Of a DNA stretch of 64,000 nt, positions 20,078 to 49,256 are shown in pieces. The stretch is taken from IMG/VR virus record IMGVR_UViG_3300016674_000066. One strand, 5' to 3'. How positions within the stretch are numbered: the stretch's first letter is position 1; the number at the start of each line of letters is the position of its first letter. The position numbers and the translations under genes are program-made. This DNA is from a virus. Lineage: Duplodnaviria; Heunggongvirae; Uroviricota; Caudoviricetes. The notes beneath the pieces are model-generated. The model ran no database searches, was not told the DNA's origin, and was given only the letters and a program-made list of their open reading frames with translations.

Positions 20078-20116
20078 TCCTTTGAAAAGTTGAGCCCCCA
20101 GTATACAACAAAATGT
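20078..20116 (-). terminator. Hairpin terminator or attenuator downstream of ssb
   Basis: Perfect 12-bp stem GTTGAGCCCCCA/TGGGGGCTCAAC, followed on the minus strand by TTTTC. Confidence 0.5.
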
Positions 20117-20132
20117 TGGGGGCTCAACAAAA

Positions 20133-20693
20133 TTAGAAGGGAATGTCGTCGTCCATGTCATCAAAGCCGCTGCTGCCGCTGTTGGCCTGCTGCTGCTGAC
20201 GAGGAGCCTGCTGCTGCTGGCGCTGCTGAGGCGCCGAACCGCGAGGAGCCTGGCCGCCTTGGCGCTGCTGGCCGCCGCCTTGACCCTGGCGCTGCTGCTG
20301 CCCGCCACCCTGACCTTGGCGCTGAGGCTGGCGCTGACCGCCACCGTTGCCGCCCTGCCCATCCTCATCATGGCCGCGCGGAGCGCCGGCGAACTCGATG
20401 GTCGCGATGTTGCCCATCAGCTTGTGGCCGGGCCCGTTCTGGCCTTGGTAGGTCTCGATGTGGATGTCGTCGATCACGACGTACACCTTCTGCCCTCGAG
20501 TCATGTACTCGGCCAGGTGCTCGGCGCGCTGACCCCAGAGTGCGCCATCAACCCACTGGGTGGGCCGGTTGCCGGATTCATCCTTGCGGCCGTAGTTGAA
20601 GGCCAGCGCCAGGTTCATGACGGCCTGACCGCTCGGCGTGTAGCGAAGCTCCGCGTCACGACCGAGGTTTGCGATGCCGATGAGTTGTGCCAT
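20133..20693 (-). CDS. ssb: Single-stranded DNA-binding protein
   Basis: OB-fold N-terminus, a Gly/Gln-rich linker, and the acidic tail DDDIPF. Confidence 0.9.
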   Translation of the reverse strand: MAQLIGIANLGRDAELRYTPSGQAVMNLALAFNYGRKDESGNRPTQWVDGALWGQRAEHLAEYMTRGQKVYVVIDDIHIETYQGQNGPGHKLMGNIATIEFAGAPRGHDEDGQGGNGGGQRQPQRQGQGGGQQQRQGQGGGQQRQGGQAPRGSAPQQRQQQQAPRQQQQANSGSSGFDDMDDDIPF

Positions 20694-20705
20694 TTCGTTT
20701 TCCTT

Positions 20706-20918
20706 TCAATAAAAAGTGGCAAGGTTGTTGTGCGCGGCGGACAGTCGGGCGAGACTGTTGGGTGCCTTCAGCGCTTTCTGCGCTTTGTCGACTGCGTCCT
20801 TATAGGAGACGGATCGCTGGTACGACCCGTTCTTGACGCTGTCCGGGATCTGCTTGAGCATGCGCTCGATGCCGTCCCGGTAGATCTTCAGCTGGTCAGC
20901 GTCGGCGCGTGCCATCAC
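20706..20918 (-). CDS. Hypothetical protein (70 aa)
   Basis: ORF track. Confidence 0.4.
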   Translation of the reverse strand: MMARADADQLKIYRDGIERMLKQIPDSVKNGSYQRSVSYKDAVDKAQKALKAPNSLARLSAAHNNLATFY

Positions 20919-21118
20919 TGAGGGCCGCGAGCGCGGGACCGCTTGTACGCAGACTTGAGCTGCAGGTGCATGGCGCGCACGCTGATGGGCTCATTGACCA
21001 CGCGGACGTGGCCATTGACCTTGGCCACCTTCAGCTCGCGATCGACGACGCCACGGTCACCGACCATTTCTTCGCGCGCCATCTTGCGCAGGCGCTTGGC
21101 GAGTTTCCCGTTCATCAC
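20915..21118 (-). CDS. Hypothetical protein (67 aa)
   Basis: ORF track; has ATGA-type overlaps with both neighbouring genes. Confidence 0.4.
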   Translation of the reverse strand: MMNGKLAKRLRKMAREEMVGDRGVVDRELKVAKVNGHVRVVNEPISVRAMHLQLKSAYKRSRARGPQ

Positions 21119-21774
21119 AAACCTTTCTTTGCCTTGACGGCTTTGATGCGATCCTGCAGCGCATCGACTTTCTGCTTCACCTCGGCCAGGAACCGGGTCA
21201 TCTCGACGTGGAGATTGGACAGACGCAACTCATCGCGCTTGACCTCGACGATGTGCAGCTGCAGCTCCGGCGGGAAGTCGGGGTTGTAGCTGACGAAGTA
21301 CCAGCTGTCGTAGCCGGTGACGTACATGCCGCCATGGACCTGCCACTCGTACTCGTCCGGGGGCTGATCGACCAGCTCCAGGTAGCGCAGGTGCGTGTCG
21401 GCGTCGGGGCTCTTGATCTCGAGGCCGGACTTCTTGCCAAGGATCAGGCCATCCGGCGAGGCGCCGCAGCGCAGGAAGGCGTGCTTCATGAAGCCTACCT
21501 CCTGGACGATCATGCCGGTCTCGGCCTCGAACGCCATGCGCGCAAAGGGCTCGCGCTCGTTGCCACGCTCCATGGCCGCCGACTTTCCACTCTTGATCAG
21601 GGGTTTCCCTGTGATGATCTCGGTGGCCAGATGGTCGGCGTACTTCTGGCGAGTGACGGAGGGCGCGCTGCCGCGACCCTTGGTCATGATGTCGCCGTAG
21701 CGTGATGCACTTGCGTACCCTGCGCGCTCGGCAAACCAGGCATCACTGCCCTGGATGATTTCTTCAGCCGGCAT
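21115..21774 (-). CDS. YqaJ/lambda-Exo-like phage exonuclease of the PD-(D/E)XK family
   Basis: QGSDAWFAERAG...SPDGLI...GLEIKSP; paired with RecT. Confidence 0.8.
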   Translation of the reverse strand: MPAEEIIQGSDAWFAERAGYASASRYGDIMTKGRGSAPSVTRQKYADHLATEIITGKPLIKSGKSAAMERGNEREPFARMAFEAETGMIVQEVGFMKHAFLRCGASPDGLILGKKSGLEIKSPDADTHLRYLELVDQPPDEYEWQVHGGMYVTGYDSWYFVSYNPDFPPELQLHIVEVKRDELRLSNLHVEMTRFLAEVKQKVDALQDRIKAVKAKKGL

Positions 21775-22675
21775 TGACAACCCCTTCCAGTACATCCTTG
21801 CGATTGAGCACGGCGCGCTTCAGCACGTCGTAGCCCTTCTTATCCTCAGCCTTCTTGGCGGCATCAACAGCCGCCTTCCAGACCTTCTCCAGCTCCTTCG
21901 TGGTGCGTGCATTGGCCACCTGCTCGAGCCAGTGGACCTGGTCGAACACGGCCTTCTCGGCTCCGGCCTGGTTGATGGGCGCCAGGCCCTCTTCGCCTTC
22001 GGTGTTGACGTGGTGGATGGCCGCGTCCAGGCGGTCGGTCTTGGGCCACATCTTCGAGCTGCGCTTGACGATCGTCTTCTTGATCATCTCGCCCTCGTCG
22101 GTCACCCATGGGCAGGACTTCTGCTTGCCGATCCAGGCCTTCCACGCTTCAGAGCGATCGCGGATGTCGTACACTTCGTCGATCGTCATGGTGTCCGTGA
22201 GGTAGTCGCCATCAGCAGTCTTGGCCACGCAGTACACACCAACGATGTTGCCGCGCTCACGATCGAACGGCTGGAAGTCGTGCGTCGGCAGCTTGTCCAG
22301 ACCATTCAACTGGAACAGATCTTTCTCGCGGACGATCTCGGCCTTGGCCCAACGCACAGAGCCGCTGGAAACAGCAAGCTCAACCAGACCCATGTAGCTG
22401 ATGTCCAGGCACACGCTGTTCTTGCGCGGCACCAGGTAGGCGTGCTTCTTGGCCGGGTTCAGCGACAGGCCGATGGCTGCCAGGTTGGTCACAGCATTGA
22501 CCACAGACTGCCGGTTGTTCAGGGCAACCTTGGTCAGGTAATCGTTGGCCGAGATGATCTGGATAGCGAACTCTGCCTCACGCTCGAACTTGATCGAGCG
22601 GTCGGACAGAACGCTGTTGAAGGTCGGGCCGACAGCGTAGATGTCGGTTTCGATGACCTGCAGAGCGTTGCTCAT
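21764..22675 (-). CDS. recT: RecT-family single-strand annealing recombinase
   Basis: Motifs AIGLSLNPAKKHAYLVP and ISYMGLVEL; lies adjacent to the YqaJ exonuclease gene. Confidence 0.85.
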   Translation of the reverse strand: MSNALQVIETDIYAVGPTFNSVLSDRSIKFEREAEFAIQIISANDYLTKVALNNRQSVVNAVTNLAAIGLSLNPAKKHAYLVPRKNSVCLDISYMGLVELAVSSGSVRWAKAEIVREKDLFQLNGLDKLPTHDFQPFDRERGNIVGVYCVAKTADGDYLTDTMTIDEVYDIRDRSEAWKAWIGKQKSCPWVTDEGEMIKKTIVKRSSKMWPKTDRLDAAIHHVNTEGEEGLAPINQAGAEKAVFDQVHWLEQVANARTTKELEKVWKAAVDAAKKAEDKKGYDVLKRAVLNRKDVLEGVVNAG

Positions 22676-22677
22676 GT

Positions 22678-23766
22678 TCAGATGCCTCCGAAGGAAAGGG
22701 CTTCGCCGGTCTTGACGATGTAGGACTTGGCCGTCTCGTCGTCGACTCCGAAGTGGGTTGCCACGGCATAGACCACGCGGGCGACGTCGGGGATCTGGTC
22801 GTCGAACAGGCGGTCTTCGTGGGTGGCACCCAGGTCAATAGGCGGCTGGCTGCCGACGGGCAGGGCGTCAAACGGCACGTCGTCGTTGAACGACTCCTCG
22901 GCAGACCAGGATTCTGTTGCCGGATTGATGGGCTCGCCTTTATGCAAGCTCTCAACAACACCGGTGACCACGGGCACATCACCTGACGGGTAAACCTTGA
23001 CGGCGCCGACGCCGGTGGTAGCAGCCTGATCGACAGCAGCATGCACGGCAGCAGATTGCGACGCTGTCAGCTTGGCCACCATGGCCTGCATCTCGGCGAG
23101 CTGCTGGCGCAGACGCTCGTTCTCGGCTTGCTGGGCGGCAACGCGGGCAGCCTCTTCTTCGCGCAGCTGGATCTTCGCCTTCAGGGTGTGCAGCTCTGAG
23201 ATCACCTTGGTGCGGGTGTGCTCGGCCTCTGCCAGGAACTCCTGGAAGAACTCGGGATTCAGGATGGCGCCAAGCCCAACGATGATGGCGTCGATGTCAC
23301 CAACGGACAGGCGGTCAGCCTCTGCGCGCGCCGTGGTGCCAGCAATGCGGGTGATCTCATCGCGGATGATGGTGATGCGCTCGGCTTCCTTGCGCTCAGC
23401 CTCTTCCTTCTCGCGCTGCTTGCGCTCTTCCTCGGCTGTAATCTGGGCGTCGATCGGATCTTCGATCGCGCGAACCGCCAGGGTGATGCGCTCGGCCTCA
23501 GAGTTGAGCGCCGTCTGCGCAGCCTTGATGCGGGAGGCTTCCTCCTTGCGGATGCGCTCGACGTTGTAGCGCACCTCGCGGATGGTCATGCGGGCCTTCT
23601 TGGCCTGATCCATGCCCTTGGTGGTGGCCACATCGAACACGACGTTCTTGTAGGTCTCGCTCAGTTTGGCTAGACCCTTGTCGACCTTGCTCAGCTCCTT
23701 GAGCGCCATGACGGCGAAGTTGTTCTTTGCGACGGAGCCCTGTGCTCCTGCAGTCTGCTCTTCCAT
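22678..23766 (-). CDS. Coiled-coil hypothetical protein (362 aa)
   Basis: ORF track; long E/R/K-rich heptad region. Confidence 0.5.
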   Translation of the reverse strand: MEEQTAGAQGSVAKNNFAVMALKELSKVDKGLAKLSETYKNVVFDVATTKGMDQAKKARMTIREVRYNVERIRKEEASRIKAAQTALNSEAERITLAVRAIEDPIDAQITAEEERKQREKEEAERKEAERITIIRDEITRIAGTTARAEADRLSVGDIDAIIVGLGAILNPEFFQEFLAEAEHTRTKVISELHTLKAKIQLREEEAARVAAQQAENERLRQQLAEMQAMVAKLTASQSAAVHAAVDQAATTGVGAVKVYPSGDVPVVTGVVESLHKGEPINPATESWSAEESFNDDVPFDALPVGSQPPIDLGATHEDRLFDDQIPDVARVVYAVATHFGVDDETAKSYIVKTGEALSFGGI

Positions 23767-23842
23767 TTGAACTCCTGTTGGTGGTTGAGTGACTGCAGTC
23801 TAACACAAAATGTTGGCCAGTCAACACAAAGTACCGGCCAAA

Positions 23843-24118
23843 TCAAATTTTTTTTGCGGTCAGTTCAAACATCTCGACGGACCTGCGGCCACGGGTGTCG
23901 CAAGCCTTCTCGTTGCACACGCGCACTGCGCCGGTCTTGGCCATGGATGAGGTCAGCTTGCTGACAGTGGAGGGGTGCAGGCCTGTGACCTGGGCGATGT
24001 CAGACCTGGAGAATGGGCCGCGCACCATCCTGGCCAGCGCGTGGGCAAAGGTGATGTGGGTGACTCGTGCTGGTCTTTGCTTTGACATGGCGTAATTGTA
24101 TGACAAAGCGTTATACAT
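23843..24118 (-). CDS. HTH DNA-binding protein; candidate repressor or regulator (the start may be the internal MSKQRP)
   Basis: Helix-turn-helix SRSDIAQVTGLHPSTVSKL. Confidence 0.55.
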   Translation of the reverse strand: MYNALSYNYAMSKQRPARVTHITFAHALARMVRGPFSRSDIAQVTGLHPSTVSKLTSSMAKTGAVRVCNEKACDTRGRRSVEMFELTAKKI

Positions 24119-24130
24119 GGAACAGAAAGT

Positions 24131-24207
24131 TGGAGCGCCCGGAAGGATTTGAATCCTCGACCTGGTGACTAGAATTCACTTGCTCTATCCAGCTGAGCTA
24201 CGGGCGC
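24131..24207 (-). tRNA. tRNA-Arg (anticodon TCT)
   Basis: Cloverleaf read by hand. Acceptor stem GCGCCCG/CGGGCGC is perfect; D-arm is GCTCAGCTGGATAGAGC; anticodon loop is ATTCTAG; CCA is encoded. The T-stem has one mismatch. Confidence 0.65.
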
Positions 24208-25830
24208 ATGTTGACGGTGGCCGGTGCTGATCTCCGGCTTAGCGAAATCAGATCAAGTCAACCAAGACAACTTGCTTGGCAACCCATCGCCACAGAACTT
24301 TGCGCATCAGCCTGCGCATTCACCATCACATCAGCGGGCCGGGCTTGATACCGACTCAGGAAGTCATCGAGCGTGGCCGCCGATCACAAAGTCACGACGG
24401 TTGGGCCTCCTGCCTCACGGCTTGGCGTGTCCTTCCACGCTGCCGCTGGTGTGATGGTGCCGGTTACGCGATCCGGCGACAACGTGCCGATCAGTCGCCT
24501 GTGTGCGTGGCGACCGCTCGACCGTGACCGTTTTCAGACCCAGCGCTCCTACGCACAGGAGAGGGGCTGGATCGTAGAAAGTTTGCCGGTTACGTATCGT
24601 CCGGCACCGGGGCAAGGACGGCGAACCCCGATCGTTGACACATCTGCGTGCCGTCAAGCTGATGGTGCCAGTCGCACTGCCAGGCCATTGGGCAACTCGA
24701 AAGCCACCCGCACAACCGCATCGGTCCCGCAGCAAATGCTGTACGCGGACTGGAACTCCGTCAGGCTTTCGCCTTCACCATCAAGTGTGACGACTGACTC
24801 AGACCGATGGGCGGCTGTGGCTAAGCACCCATCATGCATAGCATCAATCGTCACGCTTGATGGCCCGTTACTCACGGCACATCAAGGATGTCTTTCCATC
24901 AGTCAGAACCTGTTGGCCGGTGTTCACCGCACTCTAACGATATGGCGTTTTCGCATTGCCCGCCCAGGACCGGTCGCCTGTCGAGTGACACCCTTCGTGG
25001 ACATTTATAGACCGTCTTGAAGGATGAAGTCATCCAGTCTTTTCTGTCTGGCAAGGGCGATAGGACTCGAACCTATGACCCCAGGGATCAAAACCCCGTG
25101 CTCTACCAACTGAGCTACACCCCACCATCAAGTGACGACCGCCCTACTATGCCGAGGGCCCCGGCGGAGCGATCCCAGCGTTTCAACACGATCGTCGCTT
25201 GATGGCCCTATCGAAGCAGGATCACCAAGGAGAGTTTTTCAATCCTCTCTGCCCCAGATGCTTGGGCCTTACCGCCGTGCTCGCCCGCTTTCAGATTCAT
25301 CGTCTTCGGTACTTTGCGCGCCGAGGCGCCGCTTACCTACTGGCTTCACCTTACTTGCTTGACAGTCCGCACTCTTTGATACGCCAGGCCGGAATCGAAC
25401 CGACTCATCGCCACCGGTATGACGACGTGCTCCAACACACTCCAGGCGCGGGCCGCAGCGGTATCCAGCCACTGCGGCTTGATCAGTCATCATGAAGCCT
25501 CACCGGCCCGCTGCATCCCGACTTACCCTCGTCCGTCGAGACCGGGCATTCCCGGTTACTTCGCGTTAGGGGTGCCGGATCGGCTTCATCATGACTGACT
25601 CAAGTCTTCGTGCTCACAGGCCGTGGATACCACTGGCCACCTCAGCTCGCACGGAGAATGACCCGTGCCAATTGCGTTTGCAACCGCAGCCTCGGAGGTG
25701 AACACGAAGGCTTGATGGCCCGATAACGGGGGCCAGTCGGCTAAGTCAGTGTGTTGACCGCTTCAGCTCGCGGCAGGAGTCCGGGCCACTACGCCCCCGC
25801 ACACACCACACGGTATGAACCATGGGTGCG
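24208..25830. ncRNA. Leader of about 1.6 kb with no coding potential, containing repeated structured RNA-like modules and tRNAs
   Basis: No ORF with plausible codon usage. Recurrent motifs include GCTTGATGGCCC (3 copies) and CACCATCAAGTG (2 copies), and there are long-range helices with compensatory changes. Confidence 0.4.
25049..25124 (-). tRNA. tRNA-Gln (anticodon TTG) with a U1·U72 terminal mismatch
   Basis: D-arm GCTCAGTTGGTAGAGC; anticodon loop TTTTGAT; perfect T-arm ATAGG-TTCGAGT-CCTAT; CCA encoded. The acceptor stem forms 6 of 7 pairs, including 2 G·U. Confidence 0.55.
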
Positions 25831-25831
25831 A

Positions 25832-25859
25832 GTATACACACATTTTTTGCTACACCAAC
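25832..25859 (-). promoter_or_regulatory. Leftward sigma70-like promoter (P_L-like): TTGGTG-N16-TATACT
   Basis: Hexamers read on the minus strand; the operator palindrome CCAACATTTTGTTG overlaps the -35 element. Confidence 0.4.
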
Positions 25860-25984
25860 ATTTTGTTGAGTAAATGTTGTGCTGCGGCCACACCAAGAAC
25901 CGGGGTCTGACAGAGAGACCCGGAGCCGGTTGCCAAGCTCGCCTCAATGAGGCGCTCAAGAAAGATTGCCACACAAAAAAAGTG

Positions 25985-26014
25985 TTGGCAAGGCAACAAA
26001 AAGATATGTAGAAT
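25985..26014 (+). promoter_or_regulatory. Rightward sigma70-like promoter (P_R-like): TTGGCA-N18-TAGAAT
   Basis: Hexamers and spacing read directly. The half-sites AAAAAGTGTTGGC and GCAACAAAAAG flank and overlap the -35 element. Confidence 0.45.
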
Positions 26015-26085: not shown

Positions 26086-26451
26086 TTGAATACCCATCAA
26101 ACCAGCGCATCGCCCGCGCCGGAAACCATCTTCCGCGTCCGCGCCTCAGACCCAGTGACGAGCGTCATGGCTGCAGAGTCTGCCGAGATGTTCGCCGGCA
26201 AGCACAAGGACCGCATCCGGCTCGCCTTGACAAAGCTCAAGTCCGCAACGGCGCACGACATTGCCAGGGTCACCGGCCTGACTGTCGTGCAGGTTGACCG
26301 ACGCCTGCCAGAGCTCAAGCGCGATGGCGTCGCAGATGTTGTCGAGGCATCGCCTGGCGTTGATCTTCTGAGGGATGGGTTCCGTGTGTGGGCCCTGAAA
26401 AAAATTTCGACCGAAGAGCAACAGGAAGTTGCCGAGGCAACAGGAGTTTGA
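26086..26451 (+). CDS. Winged-HTH protein (TTG start); the first gene of the rightward operon
   Basis: RBS GAAGGAG; HTH HDIARVTGLTVVQVDRRL. Confidence 0.5.
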   Translation: MNTHQTSASPAPETIFRVRASDPVTSVMAAESAEMFAGKHKDRIRLALTKLKSATAHDIARVTGLTVVQVDRRLPELKRDGVADVVEASPGVDLLRDGFRVWALKKISTEEQQEVAEATGV

Positions 26452-28798: not shown

Positions 28799-28891
28799 CA
28801 ATCACGTCGCACGTAAGGATCGTGCCTGTTTAGCTGCAACAAAGTGTTGGCGGCCAATAGAATTGGCCACCACAACTTTGAGGCATTAGGC

Positions 28892-29179
28892 ATGCTCAAG
28901 AATGAACTGATCAAGATCGTCTCCAAGGAGTCCGGCGTGGCCTCCGAGCAGGTTCGCCTGGTGATGGAGCAGATCAACAAGCACACCATCGAGGCTGTGC
29001 AGCGCGGCGAAGAGGTCATGCTGTTGGGCCTTGGCAAGATCTCCGTCACCAACCGTGGCCCCAAGCAGGCCCGCAACATCCACACCGGCGAGTCCGTGAT
29101 TGTGCCGCCACGTCGCGTGCCGATCTTCCGCCCCAGCGTCTCCCTGACCAAGGCCGCCCAAGGCAGCTCCCAGGAATGA
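28892..29179 (+). CDS. HU/IHF-family DNA-binding protein
   Basis: MLKNELIKIVSKESG...GLGKISVTNRGPKQARNIHTGESVIVPPRRVPIFRPS, the bacterial-histone fold. Confidence 0.8.
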   Translation: MLKNELIKIVSKESGVASEQVRLVMEQINKHTIEAVQRGEEVMLLGLGKISVTNRGPKQARNIHTGESVIVPPRRVPIFRPSVSLTKAAQGSSQE

Positions 29180-29529
29180 CGGTGCGCCGTGTCGCCTCGA
29201 AGTACGGGGCAAAAAAGACTCAGGTTGACGGCATCACCTTTGACAGCCGCGCAGAGGCCGCGCGCTTCCTGGAGCTCAAGGCCCTCGAGCGCGCAGGCCA
29301 GATCACCAACCTCGAGCTGCAGCCGAAGTTCGAGCTGGCCCCAGCGGTCAAGCTGGGCGGGCGCACAAAGCCGGCGCTCCGGTACATCGCAGACTTCCGC
29401 TACATCGACCACCTCGGCAACGTCGTTGTCGAGGACGTCAAGGGTGTGCGGACTGACTCGTACCAGATCAAGCGCCACATGATGAAGTTCGTCCACGGCA
29501 TCGAGATCACGGAAGTCAGGAAGCGATGA
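29176..29529 (+). CDS. Hypothetical phage protein (117 aa)
   Basis: ORF track. Confidence 0.5.
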   Translation: MTVRRVASKYGAKKTQVDGITFDSRAEAARFLELKALERAGQITNLELQPKFELAPAVKLGGRTKPALRYIADFRYIDHLGNVVVEDVKGVRTDSYQIKRHMMKFVHGIEITEVRKR

Positions 29530-30038
29530 CCCCAGACGACATCCCATCACGTCTCGAGCGGCTGGCCACAGCCGTCTCAACATCGAACCTCACGTTCGAC
29601 ACCGAGCACCGCACCCCGGTCGACCGCATCATCGCGCTCGGCCTGGCATCGAAGCAGTCGGTGGTCACCAGCAACGTGCTGCGCCTGTACCTGGCGAAGT
29701 CGCCGGAGGCCTGGTATGCAGCCAAGGCCTCGGTGCTTGGCGTGGTGCGTCGTCTGTCGGACAGGCGGAAATGGGATCTGTCGCCGGAGGACGCCGACAA
29801 GGTGGCCACGCAGAGCCTGCTGATGCACATCAACCCGTCGTGCTCTCACTGCAAGGGCCACGGGTTCAAGGTGATCCCGGGCACGCCGACGTTGAGCCAC
29901 AAGCCGTGCGAACACTGCAAGGGCACCGGCCGGCGCCCACCCAACAAGAAGTTGCGCGTCCAGATCGAGGCGACCATCGCCACCCTGGAGCACATCGACT
30001 CAATGACGGAGATGGCCGTCGGAAGGTATTTGAGATGA
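29526..30038 (+). CDS. Zinc-ribbon protein; a candidate late-gene regulator (Q-like)
   Basis: CSHCKGHG...CEHCKGTG; the Q-like role is inferred from gene position only. Confidence 0.45.
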   Translation: MTPDDIPSRLERLATAVSTSNLTFDTEHRTPVDRIIALGLASKQSVVTSNVLRLYLAKSPEAWYAAKASVLGVVRRLSDRRKWDLSPEDADKVATQSLLMHINPSCSHCKGHGFKVIPGTPTLSHKPCEHCKGTGRRPPNKKLRVQIEATIATLEHIDSMTEMAVGRYLR

Positions 30039-32812: not shown

Positions 32813-33018
32813 TGCACATCCCCCTCGGCTCGCGATGGGAAGCATTGGCCGCCGTCACGAGAGCTCAAGTACGCTTTGTGCTGGCCGTTGCGCTTCTCCT
32901 GCTTGATGGCTTTGCAGGACTTGCTACAGAAGCGTGCCCATCCACGGGCGCGGTCTGCGGTGCGGGCCTGAAATGGGTCGCCGCAGTTGGAGCACTTGTA
33001 GGTTTGCTTTGCGCTCAT
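32809..33018 (-). CDS. Small zinc-ribbon protein
   Basis: CSNCGDPF...CSKSCK. Confidence 0.45.
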   Translation of the reverse strand: MSAKQTYKCSNCGDPFQARTADRARGWARFCSKSCKAIKQEKRNGQHKAYLSSRDGGQCFPSRAEGDVQ

Positions 33019-33275
33019 GCTTCGCCGCCTTCCGTGTCATCGGCAGGCAGCCGCTGCACTTTGGGTGCGCCGGCATCGAAGTAACCGGTGATGTTGGGGC
33101 TGACGGAGTGGCGCGCGCGACGCGTGGTCACGACGGTGCGGTAGTTGCCCATGGCCAGAGGCGATCGCGGCTGCTGCTCGATGGTGAGCACCACGCCGGA
33201 TGCCTCAGCCTTGGCCACCAGGTCGCGGGCGAGGAGGTCGATTTCTTGGATGGTGTGCATGGTCGACCTCGACAT
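33015..33275 (-). CDS. Hypothetical protein (about 86 aa)
   Basis: ORF track, internal start MSRSTMHT. Confidence 0.4.
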   Translation of the reverse strand: MSRSTMHTIQEIDLLARDLVAKAEASGVVLTIEQQPRSPLAMGNYRTVVTTRRARHSVSPNITGYFDAGAPKVQRLPADDTEGGEA

Positions 33276-33277
33276 CA

Positions 33278-33401
33278 GTTGGTTGCGCCAGGCAGCCCGT
33301 AGTACAGGGCGATGAAGATGACGGCGGCGGCCCCCAGTAGAGATATCCACACGACGGGGTCGTCGCTGGAGGCGATCAGGCGGACGATTGTTTTCAAGGT
33401 G
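33278..33401 (-). CDS. Possible small hydrophobic peptide (TTG start)
   Basis: AGGAG RBS; the first gene after the promoter/operator at 33410-33460. Confidence 0.25.
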
Positions 33402-33477
33402 CTCTCCTGTAAAGCGTTGAAGAAACACCTCTATTATCAACAAAAAGTTGCGTGGCAACTGTTGTGTTTTTGCGACG

Positions 33478-34188
33478 TCAGTTCAGCAGCCCGGATCTCG
33501 AGAGCTGGTGTTTGGCCCACTCTCCGGCGATCCACTCGACTCCCTTTGGCGTCATCTTCACGTTGGTGTATGCGTGATTGGTGTCTTCGCTGATGCCGGT
33601 GGTGATGCGGAAGCGGCCTGCATCGATGTGGTTCTGGTAGGCCATCATCCGGCCCTGGAGTCGGTACATGATCCGCTCGGCAACAAGGAACTCGCGGAAC
33701 CTGGCTTCATTGGCGCCAAGAATTTTGCATACCTCGCGGAAGCCCTTCTCTCCGGTGGCAGCGTTCACGTACCGATCGACAAACTCGACGGCCGGCTTCT
33801 GCTGCTCGATCAGCTTTTGCTGCTCCTCGATCCTCTCGGCCTGTTCGGCCGCCAGGCGGAGGGCGCCAGAGAGGGTGGTTGGAACCTGGAATGCAGGCGT
33901 CGAGACCGCTGCCTCGAGCTCCTGCCAGCGGTCGATCACCCTGGCTGTGAACTCGGGGGAGAGCCTGGCCACCAGGACGAGGCTGTCTCGCTTGTTCAAG
34001 ACGAACTGCTTGTACGTCTGGCCATTCTGTTCGCTGACGTAGGGGGTCTCCTGAATTTCAGGACACACCCCAGATGCCTGCAATTCCCGGCAAATGACGG
34101 CGACGTTGTCGTGACGACGGCCGGTGATGGAGGCGATCTCGCGGCTGGTCATCGTGATCGATGGTCCGCTGTGGATAAGTTGGTTCAC
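33478..34188 (-). CDS. Phage antirepressor with an Rha N-terminal domain and a KilA-C C-terminal domain
   Basis: ITMTSREIASITGRRHDNVAVICRELQ (Rha) and VKMTPKGVEWIAGEW (KilAC). Confidence 0.8.
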   Translation of the reverse strand: MNQLIHSGPSITMTSREIASITGRRHDNVAVICRELQASGVCPEIQETPYVSEQNGQTYKQFVLNKRDSLVLVARLSPEFTARVIDRWQELEAAVSTPAFQVPTTLSGALRLAAEQAERIEEQQKLIEQQKPAVEFVDRYVNAATGEKGFREVCKILGANEARFREFLVAERIMYRLQGRMMAYQNHIDAGRFRITTGISEDTNHAYTNVKMTPKGVEWIAGEWAKHQLSRSGLLN

Positions 34189-34713
34189 AGGAATCCTTTC
34201 TTACTGACAAGGAGGTTGGTAAACATCTTCCTGAAACCTCATCACCCAAGGGAGCGTTGGAATCCCTGACCGCAGGGAGGCCCAAACCCACGAACGCATC
34301 GCGAGTTCAGGCCTCCCCGCGAAGGTCGACACCCAGTGGTCGGTCGTCACCCCTTCGGTTGTCTAAAGCGCCGGTACGCGCAGAAGCTGTGCCAATCAAC
34401 CCCATGTACCTGGGTCAAGCTCGCGCATTGGCATTCGGCGCGCTGGTGGTTTGAGCTGCATCCTTCCACCTCTCGCACAACCCGGATCGAGACCGCACCC
34501 CTATCTCACAGGGATTGGTGACGCATGAGGCGTGTGCCAGTCGACGTGGAAAGCAAAAGCCCTCTGGTTCCTTCCTCTCCGGTGGAAACCTCGGCACCTT
34601 TCGATGCTTTGGCGGAGAGGAGGAGCCAGAGGGCTCGATGTCTTGCAGGTTTCCACGCCTGACGCTGCGAAGTATAGCAACAAAATGTTGGCGTGGGAAG
34701 TGTCGACAAAGAA

Positions 34714-34760: not shown

Positions 34761-34894
34761 ATCAGAGGTAGTGGGGTTACTTCATCTGGGGCTCCTCGGA
34801 TTGGTTGGTGTTGGACTGTTTGTCAATGCATCACAAAGGATGAGCCCCCATTGTGCATGCCGGCCGTAGAAAAAAGCCATACCCGACAAGAGTG

Positions 34895-34963
34895 TGTGGT
34901 TATATGTTGCAATGTTTTTGTTCTGTGTGCAACAATTACTTCAACGCAAACACAGAGGTCGAT
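34895..34963 (+). promoter_or_regulatory. Cassette promoter/operator module, copy 1
   Basis: TTGCAAtgTTTTTGTTCTGTGTGCAACAATTAC...CGCAAACACA..ATG; homologous to the modules at 37.4, 40.7, 44.2 and 47.1 kb. Confidence 0.5.
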
Positions 34964-35290
34964 ATGGACAACACCAGCTTACGCAACGCACGCATCAACT
35001 CCTTTGCCGGCCAGGCCGTCATCGCGAGCCTGAGTACTGCCGGGTCGACCCGAGTACCGAACGGTGCGCGCCGCATCTTCATCGAGTTCCTGGTTCGTGA
35101 TGGCTGGCGCCGCCGCGACGCAGCCCATGAGTTCGACGAGTTCCTGGTCTGCAACGGCGTGGCCCGCACCAAGGATAGCTACCTGGTCGTCCGCCGCACC
35201 GGCGCGCGCACCTGCCTTGCCCGGGCGCAGCGTGAGTCGGTCTACCTGACCTTTGCCAACGCCATCAACCACGCAACCTTCGAGGCATGA
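34964..35290 (+). CDS. Hypothetical protein (108 aa); first gene of cassette 1
   Basis: ORF track, internal ATG. Confidence 0.45.
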   Translation: MDNTSLRNARINSFAGQAVIASLSTAGSTRVPNGARRIFIEFLVRDGWRRRDAAHEFDEFLVCNGVARTKDSYLVVRRTGARTCLARAQRESVYLTFANAINHATFEA

Positions 35291-36667: not shown

Positions 36668-37006
36668 ATGAAAAAACTCGCCATCGCCATTGCCGCCCTC
36701 GCGCTTTCGGCTGCATCACACGCCCAGTCCTGGACTGGCAACGACCTGCTGACTCGCCTGCAGTCAGACGAGCACGGCTCACGCATGGCCGCCCTTGGCT
36801 ACGTGCGCGGCATCGCTGACGCGCTGCAGGGTGAGATCTTTTGCCCGCCCGACGGCGTGACCTATGGCCAGGCCTACGACGTCGTGGCCAACTGGCTGAC
36901 CGTCAATGCTGCGCAGCGGCACCGTGGAGCTGGGCCACTGACGATCGTTGCCCTGGCATCAACCTGGCCCTGCAAACAGCAGCGGCAGCAGAAAGGTGGC
37001 GCCTGA
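36668..37006 (+). CDS. Secreted hypothetical protein carrying a signal peptide
   Basis: MKKLAIAIAALALSAASHAQ. Confidence 0.5.
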   Translation: MKKLAIAIAALALSAASHAQSWTGNDLLTRLQSDEHGSRMAALGYVRGIADALQGEIFCPPDGVTYGQAYDVVANWLTVNAAQRHRGAGPLTIVALASTWPCKQQRQQKGGA

Positions 37007-40689: not shown

Positions 40690-40769
40690 GTGTGGGTATT
40701 GCTTGACGCTTTTTGTTCTGTCGTCAACAATTCCTTCACCGCAACACAGTTTGTTTCAGGAGTACCGCA
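40690..40769 (+). promoter_or_regulatory. Cassette promoter/operator module, copy 3
   Basis: CTTGACgcTTTTTGTTCTGTCGTCAACAATTCC..CACCGCAACACAG...AGGAG..GTG. Confidence 0.5.
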
Positions 40770-41168
40770 GTGAAGATCGAACTCAACATCGGCCTCGACG
40801 TCAAGGGCAGCACCAACACCCAGGTGCAGCGCACCGAGCGTGCCCGCAAGGCCTTGGACATCATCCGCGCCGCCGGCCTGCGCTATCAGGTCGAGCGCCT
40901 GGCCAGCCAGTACGAAGACAACGAGGGCGTGGTTCACCTCGAGGACACCCTGGTGGTCGAGGCTGACGTGCCGCCCATCGGTGGCGAGCGCACCATCAAC
41001 GCCCTGGCGTACCAGATCTGCATCGAGATCCAGCAGGAGTGCATCGCCGTCTACAACCATGTCCGCCAGCGCGGCGAGCTGATCGGCCCGAATGCCAGCT
41101 CCTGGGGCTCGTTCGACATCAACTTCTTCCGGTTCTACAGCGAGGCGGCCCTGCCGCGTGCAGCATGA
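40770..41168 (+). CDS. Hypothetical protein (GTG start)
   Basis: ORF track. Confidence 0.45.
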   Translation: MKIELNIGLDVKGSTNTQVQRTERARKALDIIRAAGLRYQVERLASQYEDNEGVVHLEDTLVVEADVPPIGGERTINALAYQICIEIQQECIAVYNHVRQRGELIGPNASSWGSFDINFFRFYSEAALPRAA

Positions 41169-43052: not shown

Positions 43053-43856
43053 ATGAAAAACTACATTGACCTTGTCGACAAAATCATCTGCACCGGAGAG
43101 CGCCGCCAGGACCGCACCGGCGTGGGCACGCTGTCCATCTTCGGTGGCAGCATCGAGTGGGATCTGCGCGACCGCTTCCCGCTGGTGACGGCCAAGGAGA
43201 CCCGCTGGCGCACCGCGTTCCTGGAGATGCTGTGGTTCCTGCGTGGCGAGAGCGCCATCGACTGGCTCAACAAAAACGGGTCGAAGCTCTGGGATGCCTG
43301 GGCCGATGATCGTGGCCGCCTTGGTCCCATCTACGGCGTGCAATGGCGCGGCTGGCCAGACAGCGAGGGCAACTACATCGACCAGGTTGCGGTCATGATC
43401 AACGGGATTGTCAGCAACCCGACTGGCCGCCGCCACATTGTCAGCGCCTGGAACGTAACCGACCTGGATGACATGGCTCTGCCGCCCTGCCATGCCTGGC
43501 ACCAGTGCTACGCCGGGGGCGACGAGTGGCTCGACATGCAGGTCTACCAGCGCAGCTGGGACGTTGCCCTGGGGGCTCCGTTCAACATCGCTCAGTATGC
43601 GCTGCTGTTGCATCTGTACGCCCGCGCCACCGGCCGCAAGGCGCGCCGCCTGGTGTTTGCCTATGGCGATGCCCACCTGTACCTCAATCACGTCGACACG
43701 ATGAAGCGAGTGGTCGCCGCCGGCCCGGTGTGGGGCGACAGTTCGCAGCTGGTGATCAAGACCGACAATACCGACATCGACGGGTACAAGATCGACGACT
43801 TCGACATCGTCGGCTACCACCCGCGCGAGTTCGTCAAGCTCGAGGTTGCCGTATGA
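43053..43856 (+). CDS. thyA: Thymidylate synthase
   Basis: GGSIEWDLRDRFPLVTAKE, VSAWNV, and LPPCHAWHQCY with the catalytic Cys. Confidence 0.85.
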   Translation: MKNYIDLVDKIICTGERRQDRTGVGTLSIFGGSIEWDLRDRFPLVTAKETRWRTAFLEMLWFLRGESAIDWLNKNGSKLWDAWADDRGRLGPIYGVQWRGWPDSEGNYIDQVAVMINGIVSNPTGRRHIVSAWNVTDLDDMALPPCHAWHQCYAGGDEWLDMQVYQRSWDVALGAPFNIAQYALLLHLYARATGRKARRLVFAYGDAHLYLNHVDTMKRVVAAGPVWGDSSQLVIKTDNTDIDGYKIDDFDIVGYHPREFVKLEVAV

Positions 43857-44203: not shown

Positions 44204-44207
44204 GGAA

Positions 44208-44234: not shown

Positions 44235-44304
44235 TCATTTAACTTGCAACATTTTGTTGTTGCGTCAATAATTTCTACATCGCAACGCAAACAGGAGTTC
44301 ACCA
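44235..44304 (+). promoter_or_regulatory. Cassette promoter/operator module, copy 4
   Basis: TTGCAACATTTTGTTGTTGCGTCAATAATTTC..CGCAACGCAAAcaGGAG..ATG. Confidence 0.55.
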
Positions 44305-44822
44305 TGTATTTAGGTCACCACCCCGACGGCAGCGGCGTCCAGCTTCACAGTGCTGGCGGCCTGTACCCCTACGTCATCGCACTGCGCGAGCGCTACAACA
44401 GCGAGACCGACAGCTTCGTCCGCACCTACGAAGTGACCGGCCCGGCTGCCGAGTACGAGTGCCCGACCTGGGATGAGGCAGTGGCCTTTGCAGAGGCGCG
44501 ACGCGACGAGTGGAAAGGGCGCAACAAGCCGGTCAAGGTTGAGCGACCGGCGCCGCGCCAGCCTGGCGGCATTGGCATCGAGGCCAGCGTCAAGGGCCAG
44601 CATGCCGTGGGCGTCCATCAGACGACGTTCAATGGCATCACCTACGAGACCTACTACATCGTCGGCCCGCGCGCCACGGATGAGGTGTTCTACACCCACC
44701 GCGCGGCCACCAGGGCGATCGACTACCTGGAGAGCGACTTCCACACGATCGAGCTGCAGTTCACTCGGGCACGCCAGCGCGCCTGGAGCCAGTGGGCTGC
44801 AGACCGCAACAAGACTCACTGA
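44305..44822 (+). CDS. Hypothetical protein (172 aa)
   Basis: ORF track. Confidence 0.5.
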
Positions 44823-44902
44823 TGACCCAGCCATCTGCCCGGCGCGCTGCGGCAGATGGGTGTGAATCACCGACCCATCCAAAACCTTGAAAGGAAAATG
44901 AA

Positions 44903-45130
44903 ATGCAAGACCTCGCCCAGATCCGCCGCCAGAATGGCAACCACATCAACAGCGTTGTGCCCGACCTGGTCGCCCAAGGCAAGCACGTTGTCGTCCACTA
45001 CACCGGCCTGAACTACGCGGGCCACCAGGCTTTCGACACCGCCGAGGAGGCCGCAGGCTACGCCGAGAAGAAGGCGACCGAGCGCGGCACCACCGTCAAG
45101 ACCTACAGCCCCGACCCGGTCGCAGCCTGA
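44903..45130 (+). CDS. Hypothetical protein (75 aa)
   Basis: ORF track. Confidence 0.45.
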   Translation: MQDLAQIRRQNGNHINSVVPDLVAQGKHVVVHYTGLNYAGHQAFDTAEEAAGYAEKKATERGTTVKTYSPDPVAA

Positions 45131-45174
45131 TTCATCAAGTCCGGCCCACCCGGGCCGGCACCCAGGAGTTCACG

Positions 45175-46529: not shown

Positions 46530-46533
46530 CGGC

Positions 46534-46776
46534 ATGAACATCATCATCTACACCAAGAACGGCTGCCCCAACTGCGACAGCGCGAAGCAATTGTTGGCTG
46601 CAAAGAGCCTGCCCTACACAGCGCACAACGTCGAGACCATGGAGGGCCTGGCTGCATTCGTCCCAGCCCGGGAGAAGTATCCGGCCATTCGCCAGATGCC
46701 TGCCATCATCATCAACGACCAGTACGTCGGTGGCCTGGCTGGGCTGCAGGCGGCGCTGAAGCAGCTCAACCTCTGA
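46534..46776 (+). CDS. Glutaredoxin-like protein
   Basis: IIYTKNGCPNCDSAKQLL with a CxxC active site. Confidence 0.65.
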   Translation: MNIIIYTKNGCPNCDSAKQLLAAKSLPYTAHNVETMEGLAAFVPAREKYPAIRQMPAIIINDQYVGGLAGLQAALKQLNL

Positions 46777-46786
46777 GGCGGGCGGC

Positions 46787-47134
46787 ATGAGCGACTGGAG
46801 CCAGGAGCTGGCCAAGGCGAAGGCGGAGCGCCGCACTCCGGCGCCTGATCGCATGCCGCCCAACATGAAGCCTGCCGCCAAGAAGCGCAAGAAGCCAAAG
46901 GCCAGGTTCCACGTCATGTGGCGGTCCAACCTGGGTGGCATCCTGAAGGGCGGCATGGTCGTCGGCAGGTACAAGACGATGGAAGAGGCGCTGGCCTGCA
47001 TCGAGCGCAAGGTGCGCAGCGCATACGTCAGCGGCATGCACTACCCGTCCGGCACGCCCATCGACGATCGGGTGCTGCTGGATGAGCAGGCCAAGCGCCG
47101 AGCCAGGTACTGGGTCAAAGACACCGGGGAATAG
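46787..47134 (+). CDS. Hypothetical protein (115 aa)
   Basis: ORF track. Confidence 0.45.
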   Translation: MSDWSQELAKAKAERRTPAPDRMPPNMKPAAKKRKKPKARFHVMWRSNLGGILKGGMVVGRYKTMEEALACIERKVRSAYVSGMHYPSGTPIDDRVLLDEQAKRRARYWVKDTGE

Positions 47135-47149
47135 CCCTACTTTTTTGTC

Positions 47150-47217
47150 GGGATATCTTGCAACTTTTTGTTGTGCGGTCAATAATTTCATCACCGCAAC
47201 ACAAAACGGAGAGCAAG
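47150..47217 (+). promoter_or_regulatory. Cassette promoter/operator module, copy 5
   Basis: TTGCAACTTTTTGTTGTGCGGTCAATAATTTC..CACCGCAACACAAAacGGAG..ATG. Confidence 0.55.
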
Positions 47218-47592
47218 ATGGCAAACAAGGTATTCAATCAGTTTCACGCAGGTTCCGACGTTGTCGTCGTCGGCTCGAATTCCGAGCTGGCCGACATCGA
47301 CAACCCTCGCGGCGACATCTTCGGCTTCACCGCTTACGTTGTGGCCTTCAACGAGTATGGCGACACCCGTCTGTCGCCCAGCATCGGCACCTTCCCCTCT
47401 GATCGCGCTGCCGTCGAGGCCGCCGAGAAGCAAGCCGCCGCGCTGCAGTCCCGCTACGACAACCTGGGCAAGCTGCCGGTTGGCTTTGACCGCTGGGCCG
47501 AGGGTCGGGCGATTTACGGCTCTGAGGCCTACGTCGAGTACGGCGCGGATGACGACCTGGCTTGGGAGCGTTCGCAAGAAGAGGTTTTCTAA
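47218..47592 (+). CDS. Hypothetical protein (124 aa)
   Basis: ORF track. Confidence 0.5.
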   Translation: MANKVFNQFHAGSDVVVVGSNSELADIDNPRGDIFGFTAYVVAFNEYGDTRLSPSIGTFPSDRAAVEAAEKQAAALQSRYDNLGKLPVGFDRWAEGRAIYGSEAYVEYGADDDLAWERSQEEVF

Positions 47593-47653
47593 GTCCCCAT
47601 CGCACAGCCTTCGGGCTGTCCAATGGCGATTTGCCAGAACACAGGAGATCGAA

Positions 47654-48091
47654 ATGTCCAAGACCCGCACCATCACCGCCACGTACGATGGCGTGACCTT
47701 CAAGCGCAAGACGCACCGCAACTACAGCCACGTCATCATCGGCCGCCTGGATGTCGAGAAGCTGGTTCGCTGCGAGCGCGAATTCGCCGAGAAAAACTTG
47801 CGCAGCAACTGGGGCTTCTACACCGAGGTCGCGAACGGCACTCACCGCAACATCGAAACCATGTCTCAAGCCCAGCTGGACGAAGCCAACCATGTGGCGT
47901 CGCTGGGCATCGATGGTGCAGCCAAGTATCGCGGCGACCAGGCCGAGACGCGAGCCCGCAATCGGGCTGCCAAGGGCTGGGAGCCGCTGGCCTGGGCTGG
48001 CCGCCCGGACCTGGCAGCCAAGCAGGTGGATGAATGGAAGAAGTCAATCCACTGCTTCGGCCAGGTTCTCGCCATACACGTCGACGCCTGA
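47654..48091 (+). CDS. Hypothetical protein (145 aa)
   Basis: Internal ATG with RBS ACAGGAGATCGAA. Confidence 0.45.
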   Translation: MSKTRTITATYDGVTFKRKTHRNYSHVIIGRLDVEKLVRCEREFAEKNLRSNWGFYTEVANGTHRNIETMSQAQLDEANHVASLGIDGAAKYRGDQAETRARNRAAKGWEPLAWAGRPDLAAKQVDEWKKSIHCFGQVLAIHVDA

Positions 48092-48157
48092 GCCCTCATC
48101 GAGTAGCCCTGCTGGCCAGGGCCTCTCAATGCGGATTCGCAGATCAAGGAGTTCATC

Positions 48158-48457
48158 ATGGCCACATGGCATCAGAGTCAAAACCAGGCGGCGATCAAGG
48201 CGTTATGGACGCCGCACGCCACGAAGTGGAAGTGCATCAGCGACAAGCACGACCGGCCTGCATCCTGCATGACGTTCGACGATCGCAAGAGCGCCAAGGA
48301 GTACGCCGAGCGCACCGGTGACATCCTGATTGCGCCCCGCATCACCAAGCGCGGGTACTTCTTGGCATGGGTGGGGTCTGCTGATGAGGCGCGCCGCGAG
48401 CGCCGGCAGGTCTTCAGCATCAAGAGCCGCGAGCCGGAAGAGTGGGCATTTGCCTGA
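48158..48457 (+). CDS. Hypothetical protein (99 aa)
   Basis: ORF track. Confidence 0.45.
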   Translation: MATWHQSQNQAAIKALWTPHATKWKCISDKHDRPASCMTFDDRKSAKEYAERTGDILIAPRITKRGYFLAWVGSADEARRERRQVFSIKSREPEEWAFA

Positions 48458-48475
48458 CACAGCAAGGAGTTCAAC

Positions 48476-48718
48476 ATGCAACAACAAGTTCACGCAGGCC
48501 ACAAGGCCACGGGCCGCACCGGCGGCGCCCTGCAGCGCAAGATCATCGCGGCCGAGGTCAAGCTGCTGTCCGTTCCCCTGGCAGACCGTGACGAGGACTG
48601 GGCGGCCACCATCGGTGGTGTGCGCCACGCCAACGACCTGCTCTCCCAGGGGCGCCGCGCCAAGGCTGGAAAGGTTCTCGCAAACGCAATCAAGGCAGCA
48701 GAGGGGGCGAAGTCATGA
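48476..48718 (+). CDS. Hypothetical protein (80 aa)
   Basis: ORF track. Confidence 0.4.
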   Translation: MQQQVHAGHKATGRTGGALQRKIIAAEVKLLSVPLADRDEDWAATIGGVRHANDLLSQGRRAKAGKVLANAIKAAEGAKS

Positions 48719-49119
48719 TCGACCTCAGCAACATCAAGGTCGGCGACAAGCTGGCTCTGCGCGAAAAGAGCAGCGGATGGGGCTACTACTCCATCTCTCA
48801 CCGCATCCTCGTCGTTGATCGCATTACCGCCACCCAGGTTTTGTGCGTCAACGAACAAGGCGGCAGTGGTGAGTGGCGCTTCCGCAAGTCCGACGGCAAG
48901 GAGATTGGCGAGAACTACTCGCACGCAGAGCTTGCGACCGACGAGCTGCTTTCATCCGTCAATGAGCAGCGCAGCCGTCTTGCGCGACACCTTGCCGCCC
49001 GCCGGAAGCTCAACGACCTGGAAGGCAAGCACCTGCATCAGCTTGACCTGACCCTGGAGCAGACCGAGGCGCTGGCCAATGCCTGGCTGGAGGTCAAGGC
49101 TATGGGGGCAAAGCTGTGA
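48715..49119 (+). CDS. Hypothetical protein (134 aa)
   Basis: ATGA-type overlap. Confidence 0.45.
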   Translation: MIDLSNIKVGDKLALREKSSGWGYYSISHRILVVDRITATQVLCVNEQGGSGEWRFRKSDGKEIGENYSHAELATDELLSSVNEQRSRLARHLAARRKLNDLEGKHLHQLDLTLEQTEALANAWLEVKAMGAKL

Positions 49120-49230
49120 GGCGCACCAGCAGGCTGGCCCGCGTGTTCGCTGCCGTGGACCTGGAAAACCTCAAGCGCCAACAGGGTCGCCAGCTGGATG
49201 CCAGCGGCCGCCCGGCGCAACAAAAAGTGC

Positions 49231-49256
49231 TTGACACAACAGGCACTGTGTATAAT
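49231..49256 (+). promoter_or_regulatory. Putative late promoter (TTGACA...TATAAT, but with a spacer of only 14 nt)
   Basis: The hexamers are exact; the short spacer suggests the promoter is activator-dependent or that the hexamers are misidentified. Confidence 0.35.

Follow-up and report, generated by a model that had tools for sequence, protein, structure and literature searches.

The stretch of tailed-phage DNA (Duplodnaviria; Heunggongvirae; Uroviricota; Caudoviricetes) held in IMG/VR as IMGVR_UViG_3300016674_000066, analysed here as a window of 64,000 nucleotides, carries a family of 13-base palindromes, in their best form CAACA-N3-TGTTG, that lie on its early, middle and pre-late promoters and that nine related phages from metagenomes also carry at the orthologous promoters. 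These sites are very likely operators of some dimeric DNA-binding regulator, and the cI-like protein encoded by several of the relatives is, as judged from the comparison of their genomes, probably the binder. The cI-like gene itself has been removed from the window by two small deletions.

Exact matches to CAAC-N5-GTTG number 12 in the window against 1.02 expected from dinucleotide shuffles, none of 100 of which reached 12. The form with an A/T core is present in six exact copies, and in ten copies when up to one mismatch is allowed (0.20 expected); all six exact copies are intergenic, where a Markov model trained on intergenic DNA alone predicts 0.005. Genes were called with a codon-usage model trained on the window (G+C about 61%), which places 8.5 kb (13%) between genes. 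A weight-matrix scan returned eight strong sites (20106, 23803, 25856, 28837, 33438, 34678, 44247 and 47161) with scores of 22.9-29.3, all intergenic, followed by a next score of 17.7, and the perfect palindrome CAACATTTTGTTG was found in four identical copies. Together with about five weaker sites the strong ones are spread over 17.3-49.3 kb, and the spread is similar in relatives. A sequence-only reading of this DNA had described some 12 sites as the distributed operators of one repressor or activator; the family is real, although the positions given were 1-14 nt off (e.g. 20092 for the site at 20106). The same reading held that all sites were intergenic, which is correct for the A/T-core sites; open reading frames (ORFs), however, contain four exact matches whose cores are richer in G/C (4835, 26419, 29942 and 39652). 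We found an additional intergenic site at 17378-17390, and two degenerate sites that had been placed at 25983 (P_R) and 49221 do belong to the family, with verified sequences at 25994-26006 and 49218-49249; the latter is assigned to it because its 13+6+13 architecture is that of the other tandem promoters. The main half-site spacing is N5, with N7 and N8 variants at the O_R and HU promoters.

The window encodes a large terminase (TerL), a portal protein and two giant ORFs, together with a lambdoid early region that has RecT, YqaJ, SSB and RdgC on its left side and a replication initiator, a DnaC-like loader, DUF1367, HU and DUF1064 on its right. No cultured close relative was found in INPHARED, where the best TerL match was 42% identical and DNA matches were only tRNA-sized; an identical TerL protein is present on the ENA metagenome contig ERZ27292641 k141_133284 (82.4 kb). 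Syntenic relatives were taken from IMG/VR and metagenomes and form a graded series: L001, L017 and L024 (parts of one 85-kb contig), L016, L020, L089 and L090-L096. The DNA of L089 matches the window at 88-96% identity across 13.9-31.5 kb. The DnaC-like protein, used as a probe for relatives among viral contigs, gave no match, and extension along a contig by exact DNA pattern gained only 1.1 kb.

The motif recurs at orthologous promoters in L089-L096, L017/L024/L001, L016 and L020. When the promoters upstream of the gene for a 362-aa protein were aligned from seven phages, the upstream GTTG, the downstream CAA and the -10 (TA.ACT) were invariant and the 6-nt linker was variable, and the protein encoded next to them was just 42-64% identical. 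Cores vary in relatives (ATTTT, TTTTT, ATTTC, CGTCT, TAATC) while the half-sites stay constant, and a tally of 25 non-redundant intergenic sites gave GTTG-N6-CAAC-W-TTTT-GTTG-N6-CAA. This constancy is, on the strength of the alignments, the imprint of recognition of CAAC/GTTG half-sites by a protein. A literature search for a phage operator of the CAAC/GTTG type found nothing relevant.

Every strong site lies on a sigma-70-like promoter (the sequence-only reading had noted an overlap with promoter hexamers for several), and the family does so in at least three registers: the motif centre falls at about -19.5, -27 or -39 depending on the promoter, with no fixed position relative to the -35 and -10. 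In layout A the palindrome occupies the spacer right up to the -10, as TTGnnn-N3-CAACWTTTTGTTG-(0/1)-TAnAnT (20106, 23803, 33438, 34678). In layout B a TTGCAA -35 shares bases with the left half of the site, and 7 nt separate the site from the -10 AATAAT (44247 and 47161; the HU site at 28837 is similar). Layout C is a tandem: first comes a full palindrome whose GTTG opens the -35, then a 6-nt linker, then a half-degenerate site abutting the -10; it is found at 17378, 23803, P_L (25831-25868), O_R/P_R (25972-26014) and the promoter before tRNA-Asn and the late genes (49218-49256). The sites and their promoters are as follows.

17353-17390, minus strand: tandem operator-promoter upstream of the gene at 16984-17328, which precedes RdgC; in minus-strand order CAACATCCTGTTG (17378-17390), linker CGCCAT, CAACCTTTTCTGC (17359-17371) and -10 TATAGT (17353-17358), with a -35 TTGCGC overlapping the upstream site; like architecture at L089:15717 and L090:7493.
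20088-20130, minus strand: promoter-operator downstream of the SSB gene; -35 TTGAGC (20122-20127), CAACATTTTGTTG (20106-20118), -10 TATACT (20100-20105); orthologues of the 20106 site at L090:4191, L094:5935, L095:9734 and L017:14608.
23797-23834, minus strand: tandem operator-promoter of the 362-aa/RecT/YqaJ/SSB operon, -35 TTGACT; in minus-strand order degenerate GTACTTTGTGTTG (23822-23834), linker ACTGGC, CAACATTTTGTGT (23803-23815) and -10 TAGACT (23797-23802).
25831-25868, minus strand: O_L/P_L, serving the leftward tRNA/non-coding region and the gene for a 91-aa helix-turn-helix (HTH) protein; CAACAAAATGTTG (25856-25868), linker GTGTAG, CAAAAAATGTGTG (25837-25849) and -10 TATACT (25831-25836), with a -35 TTGGTG overlapping the upstream site; orthologues at L089:6842 and L096:9208.
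25972-26014, plus strand: O_R/P_R; CACA-N8-GTTG (25972-25987) overlapping -35 TTGGCA (25985-25990), linker GCAAGG, half-degenerate CAACAAAAAGATA (25994-26006) and -10 TAGAAT (26009-26014); the block GTTGGCAAGGCAACA is kept in L089, L091, L092 and L017.
26419-26431, plus strand: CAACAGGAAGTTG in the last codons of the gene for a 121-aa winged-HTH (wHTH) protein, just upstream of the replication-initiator gene (26455).
28834-28863, plus strand: HU-gene promoter-operator; CTGCAA (-35-like) overlapping CAACAAAGTGTTG (28837-28849), -10 TAGAAT (28858-28863) and a downstream hairpin (28848-28872); orthologous sites in L089, L091 and L096, variants in L092, L093, L095 and L017.
33431-33458, minus strand: promoter-operator serving the small leftward genes 33275-33397 and 33015-33260; -35 TTGCCA (33453-33458), CAACTTTTTGTTG (33438-33450), -10 TAATAG (33431-33436).
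34671-34699, minus strand: promoter-operator; -35 TTCCCA, CAACATTTTGTTG (34678-34690), -10 TATACT (34671-34676).
34905-34945, plus strand: degenerate type-B cassette without a complete palindrome, TTGCAATGTTTTTGTTC...GCAACAATTACTTCAAC, upstream of the gene 34925-35290.
40703-40760: second degenerate type-B cassette, TTGACGCTTTTTGTTC.
44244-44300, plus strand: type-B promoter cassette upstream of the gene 44304-44822; -35 TTGCAA overlapping CAACATTTTGTTG (44247-44259), N7, -10 AATAAT and leader TTCTACATCGCAACGCAAACAGGAG; identical at L020:6311, with a degenerate orthologue at about L017:415.
47158-47214, plus strand: type-B promoter cassette preceding the gene 47218-47592; TTGCAA overlapping CAACTTTTTGTTG (47161-47173), N7, AATAAT and the conserved leader; orthologues at L001:1359 (CAACATTTCGTTG) and L016:720 (CAACCGTCTGTTG).
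49218-49256, plus strand: tandem degenerate operators with the promoter preceding tRNA-Asn and the late genes; CAACAAAAAGTGC (49218-49230), linker TTGACA, CAACAGGCACTGT (49237-49249), G, and TATAAT (49251-49256).

The use of several registers and of tandem pairs points to an operator rather than a promoter element, which would be expected to keep to a single register, as a repressor that occludes polymerase would not have to. Since most sites lie between the -35 and -10 or over the -35, positions at which simple activation would not work, a repressor fits better than an activator as the single regulator that had been proposed. The contrary explanation, to which we give very little weight, is that there is no dedicated binder and that the motif is an inherited promoter cassette, or a spacer element recognised by RNA polymerase, that spread by duplication, as promoter-stem-loop cassettes did in T4-type phages. 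Flanking similarity over about 60 nt unites the type-B sites (44247, 47161 and the degenerate copies at about 34905 and 40703), which clearly derive from one cassette, the degenerate copies retain TTTTTGTT and lose CAAC, and the T-rich core follows the direction of transcription in 7/8 sites. Between type-A, tandem and type-B sites, however, only the motif is held in common and the registers differ, a perfect palindrome is unlike a polymerase element, relatives keep the half-sites while the core changes, and the 26419 site has no sigma-70-like promoter call in a simple scan. An RNA element was rejected, as the motif lies upstream of the predicted starts, could form a stem of only 4-5 bp, and Rfam finds only tRNAs; by inspection, the spacings do not fit extracytoplasmic function (ECF) or sigma-54 promoters.

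Several individual sites are informative in the relatives. The half-degenerate site at 25994 is supported by L017, which has a full site, CAACAGAAAGTTG, at the same position, and the orthologue of the degenerate cassette at 34905 (L024:6682) has a full palindrome, CAACTTTCTGTTG. The site at 26419 is kept as CAAC-N5-GTTG with varying cores at L089:5715, L091:5899, L092:8092, L093:7381 and L095:3631, and its codons CAA and GTT are rare in this genome; the conservation in five relatives and the rare codons suggest that it is probably functional. A site of this type remains at L096:8316 though the body of the wHTH gene is absent there. The 26419 site may act as another operator or be related to the origin, and an A-tract lies about 12 nt upstream of it.

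Six of the relatives (L089, L091, L092, L093, L094 and L096) carry an XRE-type HTH gene of 145-148 aa. Where both flanks were covered, this cI-like gene lies between the P_R-side and P_L-side sites (L089, L091, L092, L093 and L096), as cI does in lambda. Residues 1-63 of the protein are almost invariant among 15 known homologues and the remainder is variable, and this invariance of the N-terminal part matches that of the half-sites. The homologues fall in Pfam HTH_3/HTH_31. An AlphaFold model (mean predicted local distance difference test score, pLDDT, 70 overall) is confident for the N-terminal domain only, the C-terminal part being helical or disordered, and the N-domain model is closest to the DNA-binding domains of P22 c2 and 434 repressor, at 28-39% identity. 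No match to an S24 (LexA-like) peptidase domain was found in the cI-like protein. The family is small (15 homologues), and those members that were traced to contigs are all within this phage lineage.

The window retains a trace of the gene at the corresponding place.

25919-25960: scar of the deleted cI-like gene; about 570 bp of L089 (6176-6782) are missing.

What is left of cI is a 37-nt internal fragment, and one of the deletion junctions lies at a 10-bp direct repeat, CCCGGAGCCG; the gene was removed by two small deletions. A tblastn search with the CI proteins of relatives found no intact CI in the window, and Pfam scans of about 60 of its ORFs found no XRE HTH. L017 and its close relative L095 also lack cI, and the end-point in L017 differs from that of the window. 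None of the three deletions reaches the last ~24 codons of the next gene, a small one that follows cI in relatives; these codons overlap the P_L operator. The sites of the window are identical or nearly so to those of the cI-positive L089, and its deletion therefore looks recent. A tyrosine integrase ends the leftward operon in L089, L090, L092 and L094, and the relatives are temperate; no integrase was detectable in the window, including at the position it has in the relatives (compared at 13605-13904). The loss of both genes suggests that the window phage probably arose recently from a temperate lineage as a lytic derivative of the clear-plaque type.

Several observations weigh against assigning the sites to this repressor. 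The window, L095 and L017 have well-formed sites and lack the gene, so that either the deletions are recent or another constraint keeps the sites. The O_R sites, which should be the heart of the switch, are the least canonical (CACA-N8-GTTG and a half site), and a few sites depart from the usual half-site spacing (N7, N8). In seven of the eight strong sites the T-rich strand of the A/T core is the non-template one, an orientation with transcription that a symmetric dimer does not need and that hints at an extra promoter-related constraint. Presence and absence do not by themselves distinguish CI (6/9 genomes) from the 121-aa wHTH protein (6/8), and a 170-aa zinc-finger protein is encoded in 7/7 family loci that cover its part of the early operon, a distribution that does not tell against it.

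A rival reading is that the sites are operators whose binder is still encoded in the window, by the 121-aa wHTH gene (26086-26451) or the 91-aa wHTH gene (23843-24118), as the sequence-only reading had suggested; the 121-aa protein, from the position of cro, would then damp the early promoters in lytic growth. In its favour, each of the two proteins has matches of winged-HTH type, and the window, though cI-less, has kept its operators intact. No gene stands between P_R and the 121-aa gene, which thus has the place of cro in lambda and is kept in the window, L089, L091, L092, L093 and L095, and the 91-aa gene directly adjoins the 23803 site. We nevertheless regard this as unlikely. Members of the 121-aa family share an invariant recognition helix, TGLTVVQVDRRLPEL, down to those of three unrelated lambdoid phages (L097-L099), and these phages contain no CAAC-N5-GTTG in 60 kb of similar G+C (60-62%), and L096 and L017 keep the motif without the 121-aa gene; as a Cro-like binder this protein is accordingly disfavoured. 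The 91-aa protein occurs in a single sub-clade only (the window, L089, L090 and L091), too narrow a distribution for a motif that L092-L096 and L017 keep and that is present in every relative examined. The 121-aa-family gene of L097-L099 directly precedes replication genes, and that of L098 and L099 lies downstream of separate XRE-type or CI/Cro/CII-type regulator genes; this constant position before replication genes makes a role in the replication module more likely than a Cro-like one.

A host protein or another conserved phage protein would also account for sites in cI-less genomes, since HU and the zinc-finger protein are encoded in every family locus that covers their genes. The candidates are the HU/IHF-like protein (28892-29179), which would act on early promoters like TF1 of SPO1, and the 170-aa zinc-finger protein (29526-30038), as a promoter-loaded Q-like factor. 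The latter has a weak match to a Q-like antiterminator PHROG (E = 3e-4), its gene ends the early operon, and many motif promoters adjoin hairpin terminators; the Q-binding element of lambda also lies between the -35 and -10. This match is marginal, however, and a profile search of solved structures returned only DnaJ-type zinc fingers, which usually contact protein, and no Q protein; neither solved structures nor NCBIfam support a Q homologue. The HU homologue is a generic HU/IHF, and an IHF site was rejected: CAACATTTTG fits the consensus CAA-N4-TTR, but the orthologues in L001 and L016 (CAACATTTCGTTG and CAACCGTCTGTTG) break it while keeping CAAC/GTTG. We know of no host regulator whose motif matches, and the three phages of like G+C noted above lack the motif. 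A binder of this kind seems to us decidedly improbable. Much the same small chance as for a motif with no binder at all attaches to two related possibilities, that the regulator is a factor conserved in all members (e.g. the 170-aa zinc-finger protein as a promoter-loaded antiterminator), or that lytic derivatives without a repressor actively maintain the sites. Two distinct cI deletions at the least (window and L017), both sparing the P_L operator, bear on the second of these, under which the phage would still be able to detect a related prophage resident in the cell and give way to it.

We return to the explanation that we consider the most probable, in which the palindromes are operators of a lambda/434/P22-type immunity repressor of this lineage. 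Dimers of the cI-like protein would bind the 13-bp palindromes, and binding of two dimers is probably cooperative where a full site has a weaker one 6 nt away (19 bp between centres). A dimer bound in the spacer, on the -35, or just upstream of the -35 and into it would block the host sigma-70 RNA polymerase, and the closure of about a dozen early, middle and pre-late promoters would maintain lysogeny; the units under such control would be recombination, replication, HU, Ant/Rha, nucleotide metabolism and the pre-late genes. The upstream O_R site overlaps the P_R -35 and adjoins the divergent cI promoter region, which makes autoregulation plausible. Given that the repressor has no S24 domain and that an Ant/Rha-type gene stands behind an operator promoter, induction is probably by antirepression. 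In the window the operators would be orphaned: the phage would grow lytically, yet be repressible in trans by a related prophage.

The antirepressor-like gene (33478-34188; KilAC and Rha domain matches) is preceded by a structured leader. The 34678 promoter lies upstream of a long, exceptionally stable hairpin with a U-run (about 34556-34640; -69 kcal/mol, z = -7.1), and the gene follows the hairpin after about 350 nt of non-coding DNA. The transcript could, from its predicted structure, be a short terminated RNA or an attenuator-like leader; Rfam gave no match for the hairpin region (34556-34668, minus strand). A hairpin with a T-run that overlaps 33431-33458 could be the terminator of the Ant gene transcript. 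The promoter-operator at 20088-20130 is likewise enclosed by a hairpin with a 12-bp stem (arms GTTGAGCCCCCA and TGGGGGCTCAAC, z = -5.75), which agrees with the terminator loop that had been seen at 20092 and looks as though it also serves as the SSB-operon terminator. The -35 lies in its 5' arm and the operator and -10 in its loop. Stems that differ in sequence yet still pair are found at L090:4176-4232, L094:5918-5975, L095:9716-9775 and L092:13540-13590; the hairpin is not present in L089 or L017.

At nearly all motif-bearing promoters a further CAAC stands 7-11 nt past the -10, close to the predicted start. The type-B cassette of about 60 nt has the consensus cTTGCAAC-N5-GTTG-N4-GTCAATAATTTC-N2-CA-N2-GCAACACAAA-N-GGAG (window 44240-44306, 47154-47220, 40700-40775 and 34885-34945; L001:1355-1420; L024:6640-6700). 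It is repeated before several middle genes and, between phages, is better conserved than the genes downstream of it. The middle region has homologues of a full-length thymidylate synthase, a glutaredoxin and a Rap1a-type immunity protein (43053-43856, 46534-46776 and 36668-37006, respectively), a cargo that is unusual for a lambdoid early region.

The DNA read from P_L includes a non-coding stretch of about 1.6 kb (24210-25830) with two or three tRNAs and with modules of about 80 nt closed by inverted CCATCAAG...CTTGATGG arms; ARAGORN in addition calls an odd tRNA with a 4-base anticodon (25380-25449). CCATCAAG has 15 copies in the window, five of them clustered here; the window intervals concerned are 24210-25830 and 49260-49630, and a comparable region without callable tRNAs is present in a relative (L017:8270-9900). 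Beside tRNA-Gln, 53 bp (24991-25043) match Xanthomonas phage RiverRider at 100% identity, in a part of its genome that has no annotation, which may indicate a Xanthomonas-like host or a tRNA-flanking element common to both phages. At the far left, adjoining the leftward early operon, the plus strand has two very large ORFs in head-to-tail order (>2355 aa and 2173 aa, within 3-13604), the second of which is 83% identical over 724 aa to L017:18871-21042.

Together these results provide a regulatory map for an uncultured lineage of ~80-kb temperate phages, which would comprise a small 434/P22-like repressor, a 13-bp operator, about a dozen promoters under its control and a probable antirepressor route. 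The genome studied here is a natural derivative without repressor and integrase, which bears on predictions of lifestyle and superinfection immunity. For annotation, it illustrates that the cognate regulator may be missing from a genome that carries the operators and can be recovered from relatives. The mechanism is most likely otherwise familiar, an ordinary phage switch whose operators are here orphaned.

The arrangement in the relatives resembles that of lambda, 434 and P22 in that the XRE-type repressor gene lies between divergent P_R and P_L, with palindromic operators on both as neighbouring sites, and in that the predicted HTH fold is closest to the DNA-binding domains of P22 c2 and 434. 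A 13-bp palindrome of odd length with an A/T-rich centre also resembles the 434 and P22 operators. It differs from these systems in that the protein has 145-148 aa without S24 and no Cro was recognised, and from lambda in that the operators extend beyond P_L and P_R to about a dozen promoters and the window has no repressor gene. Such dispersal is known from P1, L5 and phiC31. In phiC31, palindromic repressor sites (conserved inverted repeats) occupy many dispersed positions in the early region, and the C repressor of Rhizobium phage 16-3 binds ACAA-N4-TTGT and ACAA-N6-TTGT, the same half-sites at variable spacing; in both, the proteins and site sequences differ from those described here. The C1 repressor of P1 has 22 operators dispersed over the genome (PMC8546580). 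P1 is also alike in being induced by an antirepressor (Ant/Coi) rather than by cleavage, as the Ant/Rha-type gene behind an operator promoter and structured leader would suggest here, whereas its operator is asymmetric and 17 bp long, the C1 protein is unrelated, and Rfam found no P1-type c4 RNA ahead of Ant in the window. The L5 repressor gp71 has about 24 sites of 13 bp in intergenic regions (stoperators), and the lytic derivative D29 has lost the repressor gene by a small-homology deletion, keeps L5-type sites and is repressible in trans (PMC5712189, PMC9283540). The L5 sites are asymmetric, bound by a monomer and mostly block elongation inside operons, whereas those of the window are palindromic and lie on promoters, and D29 kept its integrase, which the window lacks. 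The state of this genome is nonetheless most like that of D29, in that it likewise lost its repressor gene, with a junction at a 10-bp direct repeat, and kept its sites.

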